64,000 bases of DNA from an uncultured Chlamydiae bacterium (lineage in GTDB: Bacteria; Chlamydiota; Chlamydiia; Chlamydiales; JAJFMB01): the NCBI GenBank assembly GCA_963696295.1, contig CAVOJR010000001.1, forward strand, positions 2,528,001-2,592,000, written 5' to 3'. Below, piece after piece: positions 4,373 through 7,270 of this stretch (positions within the stretch are counted from its first letter, which is position 1; the number at the start of each line of letters is the position of its first letter). Below the pieces are notes generated by a model. The model searched no databases and was not told the DNA's origin. It worked only from the letters and a program-made list of their open reading frames with translations. The translations under genes and the position numbers were made by a program.

Positions 4373-4603
4373 TTAAATAACAAGAGTCAATCCAAGAATT
4401 TTTGCGTCATAAAAATCGACAATGGCGTCAGGAAGGCCAACTTTTTGTACGAGTGTTTCAAATTCAGAACCTGATGAAGGATTTTTAAACATGAATTTCG
4501 CATCAGCTATGCCATCAGTTATCAATTCATTTAGTGTTGGTACTACTTTTGTTGCACCTCCTACTATTTGTTCGAGTTCTTCATCTGAAAGTAGTTTTTT
4601 CAT
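4373..4603 (-). CDS. Double-glycine-leader RiPP/bacteriocin-type precursor peptide with a Cys-free core
   Basis: MKKLLSDEELEQIVGG matches the ELSxEELxxxxGG leader consensus. Strong RBS (AGGAGGGG) upstream of the ATG. Directly downstream of a LanM-like gene. Confidence 0.85.
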   Translation of the reverse strand: MKKLLSDEELEQIVGGATKVVPTLNELITDGIADAKFMFKNPSSGSEFETLVQKVGLPDAIVDFYDAKILGLTLVI

Positions 4604-4687
4604 AAATACCCCTCCTTTTTTTTAATGTAGACTCTTCACCTACAATTACTTATTATAACATATTCGCATATTAAAAACAAATCCGCA

Positions 4688-7270
4688 TTAAAAAATAATG
4701 TCGGGTAAGTCGCTTCCCTCTAATTGAAGAAGGGTATATCCCACTCCTGCCATTCCGTGGGCAAATCCAAAAATGGGAAGCTTTAAGAAATCGAGTGTTA
4801 ACGGAAACTTTACCTGCCCCTTTGTGAGTCTATAGATCGCAAGCGATCTGCCCGCATTACCGCTGATCAAGCCGTCTGCCGCCACACATTTAGGTTCCAT
4901 TAGACGCGCAAGGAGAGCGCTTTTGAGCTCTTCCTCTAATTCGATCCCTGTGGCCAATAGAGCAAGCGCTGTCCCAGCCAAGCCGGTTCCAATGGTCAGA
5001 TCTTGAGGTGTAAGGGCTTCTTGCAATGGAAAAGATTCGCGAACTTGCTTTTGATCGATCTCAATCGGCGTAGGGCTTAGAATAGAGAGGGCATAAAGCA
5101 AACCATAAGGTCCCTGCAAACCATGTTTCCAGGGTCGCTCTTCTTCTTTTAGCTTTTTTCTTAACCTTAACGCAATCTTGTCAAGATGGGGATCTAAGTT
5201 GTATTTATCTTTTAATTTATGAAGAATAACTCCAATGCCCGCAATTCCTGAATCGAGAGACAAATCTTCCATTTCTTCGATGAGCTCATAGGGGATATTT
5301 TTAAGAAAATGGAGGATAATGACTTGTAAAGTTTCATCTGAGCTAAATTCACTGATAATATGAGTCCCATAGATTATTCCCAAAAGCCCCTGCCAAGCCC
5401 CTAAGGAATACCCCTTATCCACAAGAGTCATCATATTTTGACCTAAAATTCGAAAGGTTGGGATGACGGATTTCATAGTTTTTTCAAAGGCAGACCACCA
5501 GTGAGGCGAATTTGTCGTTTTTGCTAAAGCCGCAAAAAAAAGAGCTATACCGAGCGATCCTGAGCCAAGCAAATTGCCCGCTCTACTATAAACCCAATGA
5601 TCGTGGTGATAACCCATCGCTAAAGTAAACCAGGTCCAATTTCCCGCAGGGTTTGCGATAGCGGAATCTTCAATAAAAGTCGCAATGGATTCGGCCGTGA
5701 AGTTTGTTTTGCAATAGGGGTGCCAGGCATTCATTTTTTCGGCTACGGTTGGGCAATAAAAAGCAAACTTAATCATTTTTTGTTGAAGTCGAAGGTCTTC
5801 TTCAGAGCTTTTTTCGATCAGCTCCTCCATCCTTTCCCAAGGTTTTTTACAAGATCCAAAAGCCCTCTTTTGGCAATCGTGGCCTTCAAGATTTATGGTA
5901 TCGCCTTTTTCATAAAATACAGGACTTATCTCCTTTTCCAAACTTTCATGCTCCTGCTCTAAAATAAAGAGCATTTTTTCAGGCTCCTCATTTTTTATAA
6001 AATTACCTAAATCCACGTTTAGATTCTTCGTCCGAAAATACAAAGGCGCATGCATTTTTTCGTACAAAACGTTATAGGAAAACATGTCGCGGACAATGCG
6101 CCTTGTGGGCTGAGAAGACATGGTGCGAATTATCGGATTATCGAGAAAAAGGTAAGCCCGCTGCTGCAACCAGCGGTAGGTTTGTGTGTAACCGTCCAAG
6201 ATAAAATCAGCAAAATCTTGGGCTTTGTATAGCGAGCCATTCTCATCAAAGGGAATATAAGTTCCCTCATCTTTATAACATAATTCCCCCCAAAGATATG
6301 AAAAATGGAAAACGCTTTTTTCCCCTAAATAAAAGGCGCCCGGATTCAATGCAAGCCCCTTTTTTTCCGGATAATATTGACCTCTTGGCAAAGCCCCGTG
6401 AGACATCACCCCACCTTCCATCGTCCGAAATTGATCCCAACTCCCCATTTCACTTGGTATATAAAAACTAAAAAAAGTCTCTCCATCGATTAACACCGGG
6501 TAGGCGCCATTGGCGATAATATTATTCCTCCCACAATCGGAAAGACACAGAAGTTCCCATATTCTTAAAAGCGCGCCTAATCGTTTATAATAAAGCTGTA
6601 CTTCTTCTTGATTCGCTACGGGAAGATGAACAATGAACTCTTGCCATCCATATGACTCTTTAGATATTATCTCACATCCTTTTAAATCGGGTTTTAAACC
6701 CTCTTTATTTAATTGGCTTAAAAATTGAGAATATAATTTTTCAGCGTATAGTGGTCTATTTTTGTACAAAAGACGCTGTCCGTTTGAGAAGTGAAGAATC
6801 GCTCGGCGATCTTGAAAAAACCAGGCAAATGGGGCAAGCCCTTCCACGATCAAACCCGGATCTTTACCCATGAAAAATGTATCGATAATCAAAGAACTGT
6901 CCTGAGCATATCTGGCTAAGAAGTCAAATAGAGCTTTTTCCCATTTCACTCTCAATTTTTCCATTTGCTCTATCAATTGAGGATACTCAAAAAAGGCTCT
7001 TTCGATGGACCCCACTTCACTCATAACTTGTTTGCAGATCTCTCCTATTCCAAGCGTAAGACCAAATTGCAAATCAACAATACCTTGTTGAGGATCAAGA
7101 CAAGAGAACAAAGCTTTGTTTTTCCAAGCTTCCTCTAGTACCTTGCCAGCTAGATGGTAATAAAATTGCGAATGGGGTATGGAGGCGAGATCAGGGGGCG
7201 GAGGAGAATGATCGGGGTTAGATGCGTAGGCAATCCATTCTTCCCAAAGATCAACTGATACATCAGACAT
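4688..7270 (-). CDS. Divergent class II lanthipeptide synthetase (LanM)-like protein: DUF4135 kinase/dehydratase domain plus degenerate LanC-like domain
   Basis: Motifs EYPQL, FSNGQRLLYKNRP, YGWQEF, YYKRLGALL, D..NNIIANG.YPVLIDGET, RRIVR. C-terminal GxxG repeats (GSGSLGIALFFAAL, GAWQGLLG, HGMAGVGYTLL). Confidence 0.9.
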   Translation of the reverse strand: MSDVSVDLWEEWIAYASNPDHSPPPPDLASIPHSQFYYHLAGKVLEEAWKNKALFSCLDPQQGIVDLQFGLTLGIGEICKQVMSEVGSIERAFFEYPQLIEQMEKLRVKWEKALFDFLARYAQDSSLIIDTFFMGKDPGLIVEGLAPFAWFFQDRRAILHFSNGQRLLYKNRPLYAEKLYSQFLSQLNKEGLKPDLKGCEIISKESYGWQEFIVHLPVANQEEVQLYYKRLGALLRIWELLCLSDCGRNNIIANGAYPVLIDGETFFSFYIPSEMGSWDQFRTMEGGVMSHGALPRGQYYPEKKGLALNPGAFYLGEKSVFHFSYLWGELCYKDEGTYIPFDENGSLYKAQDFADFILDGYTQTYRWLQQRAYLFLDNPIIRTMSSQPTRRIVRDMFSYNVLYEKMHAPLYFRTKNLNVDLGNFIKNEEPEKMLFILEQEHESLEKEISPVFYEKGDTINLEGHDCQKRAFGSCKKPWERMEELIEKSSEEDLRLQQKMIKFAFYCPTVAEKMNAWHPYCKTNFTAESIATFIEDSAIANPAGNWTWFTLAMGYHHDHWVYSRAGNLLGSGSLGIALFFAALAKTTNSPHWWSAFEKTMKSVIPTFRILGQNMMTLVDKGYSLGAWQGLLGIIYGTHIISEFSSDETLQVIILHFLKNIPYELIEEMEDLSLDSGIAGIGVILHKLKDKYNLDPHLDKIALRLRKKLKEEERPWKHGLQGPYGLLYALSILSPTPIEIDQKQVRESFPLQEALTPQDLTIGTGLAGTALALLATGIELEEELKSALLARLMEPKCVAADGLISGNAGRSLAIYRLTKGQVKFPLTLDFLKLPIFGFAHGMAGVGYTLLQLEGSDLPDIIF

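Follow-up and report, generated by a model that had tools for sequence, protein, structure and literature searches.

The closest described counterpart of the locus analysed here is the phospeptin pathway of 'Candidatus Eudoremicrobium malaspinii', with the enzyme EmbM and the precursor EmbA (Paoli et al., Nature 2022, PMC9259500). EmbM is a kinase derived from the dehydratase domain of LanM, in which H254 (CylM numbering, as for all reference residues below) is missing and T512 is replaced by Ser (PMC9259500, supplement). EmbA is a Cys-free precursor cleaved by the double-glycine protease LahT150, and the product, obtained in two hosts and in vitro, is a linear peptide with two phosphothreonines (PMC9259500). 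Phospeptin is cited as a phosphorylated peptide made on ribosomes and modified after translation (RiPP) in the available excerpt of a 2025 paper on the known cases (PMC12639078). For CylM itself, the accessible part of the mutagenesis study (PMC4550811) reports that the D252A, H254A, R506A and T512A variants accumulate phosphopeptides, that T512A never eliminates, that slow elimination persists in vitro with H254A, and that H349 is grouped with the phosphorylation residues, H349A being slow and reaching almost full modification in 10 h. Here, we analysed a 64,000-nucleotide stretch (the window) of the genome of an uncultured Chlamydiae bacterium (contig CAVOJR010000001.1, positions 2,528,001 to 2,592,000), in which the gene of a LanM-derived protein, P0001, is followed by that of a double-glycine peptide, P0002. 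We give a probability of roughly 45% to the reading that P0001 is a LanM remodelled into an ATP-dependent Ser/Thr peptide kinase that acts on P0002 and carries out phosphorylation only.

The features of the locus are as follows, with positions counted within the window:

4688..7270 (-): P0001, LanM-derived protein of 860 aa, intact open reading frame (ORF call, Pfam/NCBIfam, phmmer, AlphaFold2)
5912..6985 (-): DUF4135 domain of P0001, dehydratase-derived putative kinase, residues 96-453 (Pfam, alignments)
4691..5710 (-): degenerate LanC-like domain of P0001, residues ~521-860 (Pfam, alignments)
4373..4603 (-): precursor peptide P0002, 76 aa (ORF call)
4556-4603 (-): leader of P0002, residues 1-16
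4376-4555 (-): Cys-free core of P0002, residues 17-76
4609..4616 (-): ribosome-binding site AGGAGGGG, ending 5 nt 5' of the P0002 ATG (sequence reading)
4652..4660 (-): possible extended -10 element TGTTATAAT in the spacer between enzyme and peptide genes (by eye, weak)
4316..4359 (-): intrinsic terminator, 15-pair stem (9 G-C pairs) and T tail, 14 nt past the P0002 stop

Open reading frames, Pfam matches and the sequence itself bear out the initial annotation's description of the pair as an 860-residue LanM homologue and a 76-residue double-glycine peptide with a Cys-free 60-residue core, its own ribosome-binding site and a terminator. P0001 has the LanM domain order in one chain, with an N-terminal DUF4135 dehydratase domain (PF13575, 2.6e-51, residues 96-453) and a C-terminal LanC-like domain (LANC_like, PF05147, 2e-14), and the rest of the genome holds no other LanC-like domain. 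The TIGR03897 LanM profile reaches 285.2 bits on P0001, under its cut-off of 304, and the match spans residues 87-712 only. The AlphaFold2 model, built on 65 aligned sequences, has a predicted local distance difference test score (pLDDT) of 85.7 and a predicted template-modelling score (pTM) of 0.90, and its best structural matches in Foldseek are LicM2 (6st5, TMq 0.64) and CylM (5dzt, TMq 0.53). The P0002 gene lies 84 nt downstream of the P0001 gene on the same strand, and a terminator scan, which places the strong terminator's stem and T tail after P0002 at 4359-4326, found no terminator-like site on the minus strand of the spacer. The TGTTATAAT element in this spacer may be a promoter of P0002's own; the call is a weak one, as a promoter consensus scan does not list the element and its -35 matches at 3/6 positions only.

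P0002 opens with the double-glycine leader MKKLLSDEELEQIVGG, and its core of 60 residues contains five Thr, three Ser and no Cys. The leader passes the TIGR01847 bacteriocin_sig profile (16.7 bits versus a cut-off of 15.7), resembles the lacticin-481 leader and matches the lantibiotic leader family NF040664, a match found for P0002 only in a comparison with five other double-glycine peptides (those adjacent to the transporter described below, the only ones scanned). No homologue of P0002 was found, and the Atlas gave no match at a level of at least 0.9. As read from the sequence, the ties of P0002 to the enzyme are adjacency, strand, the shared terminator and this TIGR01847-passing, lacticin-481-like leader. 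A predicted complex of P0001, ATP, Mg and P0002 scored 0.00, 0.41 and 0.00 and was used for neither side of the argument.

Active-site residues were mapped from three sources, namely phmmer alignments of P0001 to CylM (5dzt) and LicM2 (6st5), an alignment made with MAFFT to the 152 nearest LanMs, which come from a full HMMER search across 1.84 billion representatives, and the primer table in the accessible part of the CylM study (PMC4550811), which supplies the local CylM sequence at each mutated residue. The correspondence is given below, with counts among the 152 nearest LanMs:

K274: K170 in P0001, kept (152/152)
D347: D245 in P0001, kept (150/152)
N352: N250 in P0001, kept (152/152)
D364: D262 in P0001, kept (151/152)
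E366: E264 in P0001, kept (150/152)
R506: R390 in P0001, kept (151/152)
R510: R394 in P0001, kept (147/152)
H349: G247 in P0001, changed (His in 148/152)
T512: M396 in P0001, changed (Thr in 139 and Ser in 13 of 152)
D252/H254 (P-loop): F148/W150 in P0001, changed (Asp in 149/152, His in 152/152)

P0001 retains four of the five residues in the phosphorylation set of the CylM paper (K274, D347, H349, N352 and D364), with Gly at H349, and R506 alone of the elimination set (D252, H254, R506 and T512). The initial annotation had described the kinase residues as kept, which is correct for K274, D347, N352, D364 and E366; it had counted H349, which is lost, among the elimination residues, and the CylM paper, in its accessible part (PMC4550811), places it in the phosphorylation loop. 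The RxxxRxT motif, likewise described as lost, is lost at its Thr (M396) and retained at both Arg residues. The adenine-pocket positions L168, I252 and V259 remain hydrophobic, as counted from the phmmer alignment and the residue list in the accessible part of the CylM paper. Overall, 89 columns show at least 85% conservation across the 152 nearest LanMs, and P0001 retains 58 of them. All 152 carry H254 and all 152 carry Thr or Ser at 512, and the two losses seen in P0001 do not occur among them. We regard the loss of T512, on the alignment, as the most telling change in the protein.

The F148/W150 assignment rests on ungapped counting from the catalytic Lys, D252 and H254 being 22 and 20 residues before it. 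A MAFFT run with a gap places QDRR under (S/G)DxH instead; given the spacing from the Lys when counted without gaps, we take this placement for an artefact of the gap. That alignment would retain the Asp and still provide no His, and the close relative P0008, introduced below, reads QERT there. The P-loop of P0001 has no His under either alignment, and the proposed replacement of the (S/G)DxH loop stands.

In the LanC-like half, the column of the LanC catalytic His reads G720 (His in 137/152) and the three Zn-ligand columns read G761, I802 and S803, the Zn-ligand Cys columns being Cys in 134 and 136 of the 152 nearest LanMs. WCxG has become I-G-T-G and C(H/C)G has become I-S-G. The described loss of both Zn motifs is confirmed, with the loss of the catalytic His in addition. 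The GxxG helix repeats and structural glycines are retained, and Foldseek matches this half to LanCL1 and NisC (TMt about 0.5). As a separate observation, 19 of the 152 nearest LanMs are without a Zn-ligand Cys or the whole cyclase part and keep every dehydratase residue (among them P0003, P0024, P0031, P0047, P0055, P0100, P0101 and P0140). These look like dehydration-only LanMs, a kind that probably exists given that they keep the full dehydratase set, and that is a possible intermediate stage toward the form seen in P0001.

The exhaustive HMMER search, which answers the initial annotation's suggestion to look for homologues sharing the substitutions, returned one close relative. P0008 has 890 aa (E 1.8e-187), is 39% identical to P0001 over the full length and has no stop; the next match (E 4.7e-42) has about 29% identity. 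P0008 is a single sequence, encoded on a contig of 3739 nt. P0008 has the same changes as P0001, with an AWF loop for the P-loop Asp/His, D-C-I for D-x-H, and neither the LanC His nor the Zn ligands, and the equivalents of K274, D347, N352, D364 and E366 are kept in both proteins. R506 is kept in P0008, and position 512 is Ser. The replaced P-loop is itself conserved between the two (GL.xxAWF.Q.R.A.LHFS). Residues 140-270, the kinase core, are the best-conserved part with 53% identity, compared with 40% for the whole and 43% for the LanC-like half, which argues that both halves are under selection. The selective loss in an intact reading frame that had been described is hence shared with P0008, and its H254 and T/S512 components have no parallel in the 152 nearest LanMs.

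In a FastTree phylogeny of 62 sequences (the P0001/P0008 pair, 52 database hits and 8 chlamydial LanMs), P0001 and P0008 are joined at 100% local support on the longest inner branch (1.84), and their tip branches of 1.02 and 0.90 match the median of 1.01. These branch lengths suggest that change came in a burst before the two diverged and that constraint has been ordinary since. P0001 does not group with the 8 chlamydial LanMs. In our reading of these comparisons P0001 is a selected, remodelled enzyme rather than a decaying one.

Further searches for members of the subfamily were negative in the collections covered. A search with the P0008/P0001 alignment gave no further relative in genome contigs (112 pattern matches) or metagenome contigs (463), a back-translated subfamily motif had 0 matches in the genome and metagenome contig collections, and a word-based protein search with P0001 returned canonical LanMs only (23-27% identity), with no match among shorter proteins. 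P0001 has no homologue in the other two genomes of its GTDB family (0/2). In each of two soil-metagenome runs, which come from two studies, one short contig is identical to the enzyme gene (237 nt and 186 nt, window 6812-7048 and 6079-6264), so that this gene sequence is present in soil samples at low depth. These contigs carry no variants and hence offer no selection test, and no RNA run is among the listed sequencing runs that hold the enzyme gene.

P0002 is one of a set of double-glycine peptides in this genome (3.43 Mb, two contigs). The leader pattern has 18 ORF matches, corresponding to about 13 distinct genes, compared with 1 match in the reversed genome. The shared leader form is M-K-x-L-x-x-E-E-L-K-x-V-x-G-G, and the core is without Cys in 12 of the 13 distinct peptides. 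Five of the genes lie in a row beside a locus with the order HlyD, OEP, C39-type ATP-binding cassette (ABC) transporter and second ABC protein (G000:C1:1666325-1674871; L012:4326-12872), and the others are scattered over C1; P0002 is the sole one that adjoins the enzyme gene. The C39-peptidase ABC transporter for which a genome search had been proposed was thus found, as a peptidase-containing ABC transporter (PCAT) with HlyD and OEP at about 1667.8-1674.9 kb of G000:C1 (C39 domain PF03412, 120 bits in a 733-aa frame), about 860 kb from the P0001/P0002 pair. The GC content at third codon positions (GC3) is host-like in the transporter genes (0.60-0.70), and 13 of 14 measured double-glycine peptide genes are AT-rich (0.15-0.40). 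At the enzyme locus it is 0.39 for P0001 and 0.18 for P0002, with 0.54-0.61 in neighbouring genes. Low GC3 was considered as a sign of joint arrival of enzyme and peptide and rejected, given that 13 of 14 such peptide genes are equally AT-rich.

Compared with the LanMs CylM (5dzt), LicM2 (6st5) and ProcM, the system shares the two-domain architecture, the fold, the lipid-kinase-like Lys/Asp/Asn/Asp set and a precursor with a double-glycine leader. It differs in lacking the Zn ligands, the LanC His, the P-loop Asp/His and the catalytic-loop His, in having Met for Thr512, in the TIGR03897 score under the cut-off, and in a core without Cys. Salivaricin 10, as described in the available part of PMC10235938, likewise comes from a lanthipeptide pathway and keeps a phosphate on Thr when mature, but is a ring-bearing lanthipeptide, whereas P0001 and P0002 allow no ring. 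With PCAT-exported double-glycine peptides P0002 shares a leader that passes TIGR01847, in a genome that encodes a C39-ABC transporter with HlyD and OEP; in contrast to them, the transporter is remote from the pair, and cleavage and export of P0002 are predicted steps.

The likeness to phospeptin is closest. Both systems have an enzyme derived from the LanM dehydratase that is without a counterpart of H254 and has another residue in place of T512 (Ser in EmbM and P0008, Met in P0001), no working cyclase, and an adjacent precursor gene with a Cys-free core and a double-glycine leader. A kinase-only LanM with a Cys-free double-glycine precursor is accordingly known as a kind since phospeptin in 2022, and the initial annotation's candidate new RiPP type cannot be upheld. 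The systems differ in that EmbM is without any cyclase domain, whereas P0001 has a full but dead LanC-like domain, and in that the EmbA core has 18 aa and the P0002 core 60 aa, in another phylum. Since no H254-less protein is among the 150 best hits, P0001 and EmbM probably arose independently. New in P0001 and P0002 are a full-length architecture in which a dead LanC-like domain is conserved, the deeper active-site remodelling, the 60-residue core, the chlamydial host and, probably, the independent origin.

The domain architecture, the residue pattern and the conservation of that pattern come directly from the data. On the mechanism we propose, P0001 would bind the double-glycine leader of P0002 and phosphorylate Ser/Thr within the 60-residue core, and the phosphate would be retained, since P0001 has neither the P-loop Asp/His nor the Thr by which the alpha-proton is removed. 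The LanC-like half would be catalytically dead and may act as a scaffold or substrate dock. The HlyD-OEP-PCAT system would then cut the phosphopeptide after the double glycine and export it. Phosphorylation without elimination, which the initial annotation had predicted together with the absence of rings, is the best-supported reading, by analogy with the CylM mutants (PMC4550811, accessible part) and with EmbM, a proven kinase-only enzyme (PMC9259500).

Several observations weigh against phosphorylation of P0002 by P0001. H349 is lost in both relatives (Gly in P0001, Ile in P0008), and the two also have changes at E351 and at the Pro that follows the catalytic Lys, whereas EmbM keeps D252 and the catalytic-loop His, both of which P0001 is without. 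In P0008, R506 is kept and position 512 is Ser, a residue also present there in 13 of the 152 ordinary LanMs, so elimination may persist in the subfamily. The co-occurrence of the enzyme with a double-glycine peptide rests on a single locus. Cys-free, AT-rich double-glycine peptides are the norm in this genome, and P0002 is therefore no specific match to the lost cyclase; the initial annotation had taken the Cys-free substrate as such a match. Finally, LanM-like proteins without a catalytic role exist, namely the clostridial CA_C0082 type (PMC10301443, available part).

The last point leads to an explanation that we consider unlikely while taking it seriously, in which P0001 is a non-catalytic pseudoenzyme that binds double-glycine leader peptides or another partner as a chaperone, regulator or immunity factor. 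It would account for the many changes at LanM-conserved positions (58/89 columns kept), including those at the catalytic-loop His and at the Pro that follows the Lys. The available part of PMC10301443 describes the CA_C0082 proteins as LanM-derived, without the Zn motif and the dehydratase residues, those for elimination included, and yet retained under selection and with a phenotype. However, according to the same source these proteins of 670-728 aa are also without the residues for phosphorylation and have only part of the dehydratase domain, and their genes lie downstream of agr operons with no adjoining double-glycine peptide. P0001, by contrast, keeps the K/D/N/D set in a full-length domain and has DUF1706, GNAT and glycosyltransferase genes as neighbours. 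That all five residues from K274 to E366 are kept in both P0001 and P0008 at 39% identity, within the most conserved part of the protein, also speaks for catalysis.

It is improbable in our view that P0001 is an active kinase for which P0002 is not the sole or main substrate, acting on several of the ~13 double-glycine peptides or on another protein, with the adjacency being incidental. The alike leaders of these ~13 genes, nearly all with Cys-free products, the five beside the PCAT and the low GC3 that they share with P0002 would fit such a role, and one LanM with many scattered precursors is known for ProcM, as far as the available source text describes it. But among these peptides P0002 alone has a gene that adjoins the enzyme gene, 84 nt from it in the same orientation and with one terminator after the pair, and the NF040664 lantibiotic-leader match is confined to P0002 in the comparison with the five PCAT-adjacent peptides.

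Quite doubtful, too, is a P0001 that is still a dehydratase, phosphorylating and then eliminating through other residues to give a linear dehydroalanine/dehydrobutyrine peptide without rings. R506 and R510 are kept, the Ser at 512 in P0008 recurs in 13/152 LanMs, the 19/152 Zn-less or cyclase-less LanMs retain the whole dehydratase set, and CylM-H254A eliminates slowly in vitro (PMC4550811, accessible part). On the other hand, H254 and T/S512 are present in 152/152 nearest LanMs, all 19 Zn-less ones included, P0001 has Met at 512 where the CylM T512A variant never eliminates (same source), and EmbM does not eliminate with milder changes (PMC9259500). Decay to a functionless LanM remnant, which the initial annotation had named as the alternative, is very improbable despite the lost catalytic residues, the TIGR03897 score under the cut-off and the orphan status in the GTDB family, because the losses are selective, absent (for H254 and T/S512) from the 152 nearest LanMs and shared with the intact P0008 at 39% identity, in an intact 860-codon frame with normal tip branches and a confidently predicted fold (pLDDT 85.7), and a function other than lanthionine formation is likely.

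In the surroundings of the pair, the gene of a DUF1706 protein lies upstream (7382-7903, minus strand), and no minus-strand terminator is seen between it and the enzyme gene, making co-transcription possible. Next are a gene with a weak GNAT match (7916-8386, plus strand) and two DXD glycosyltransferase-like genes (8383-9102 and 9112-10047, minus strand). Directly after the P0002 terminator, an ORF of at least 1333 codons (2-4000, minus strand) runs off the start of the window and matches neither Pfam nor NCBIfam. A cluster for the arginine succinyltransferase pathway (12646-18984, minus strand) with AstB, an aldehyde dehydrogenase, AstA, a class-III aminotransferase and an M20 peptidase has a GC content of 0.50-0.57, above that of the region around P0001 and P0002. 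A 1792-aa collagen triple-helix repeat protein is encoded at 36994-42372 on the plus strand (Pfam Collagen, 1.2e-93), and because of its repeats two antisense frames of more than 1000 codons are open opposite the gene.

Within the phylum, a search of 400 other genomes gave LanM hits at E <= 1e-10 in 15 of them, at identities of 25-35%. The eight chlamydial LanM loci inspected (L003-L010, in genomes G033, G359, G337, G320, G101, G323, G149 and G301) are canonical with CCG-type Zn sites: the P-loop, YKP, IDxE, WCHG and CCG occur in all, DxHxxN in 7/8 and RxxxRxT in 6/8 under a strict pattern. Among the papers listed, as judged by titles and the starts of abstracts, none stood out as dealing with chlamydial lanthipeptides. 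C39 domains are present in 70 of 300 further genomes from the phylum and in 0/30 of its small-genome family (1.0-1.2 Mb, with a second small contig). The genome of P0001 also has a weak Chlam_OMP6 match (29.9 bits, under the cut-off), with 0/14 in control genomes; together with the small-genome family in its phylum, this points to a chlamydia-like bacterium.

A more far-reaching scenario, which we regard as a long shot, is that P0001 serves the ~13 Cys-free double-glycine peptides genome-wide, one-to-many as in ProcM, with the dead LanC domain as substrate dock, in a probably host-associated bacterium that exports a library of phosphorylated small proteins via the PCAT, possibly acting on the host. 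Kinase-only LanMs would then have evolved a second time, independently, and no RiPP-like system would have been described in Chlamydiota before this one. Should P0001 be a kinase, LanM-derived enzymes have come to retain phosphate more than once, and phospeptin would represent a recurrent route and no oddity. P0001 would also be a natural variant, with Met for Thr512, no P-loop motif and no His349, to set beside the structure-function data on the active site of LanM. A dead LanC domain would have been retained over tens of percent divergence, which bears on roles of LanC beyond Zn chemistry. The finding also highlights that environmental chlamydiae have an unreported set of cargo peptides with double-glycine leaders, along with PCAT exporters.

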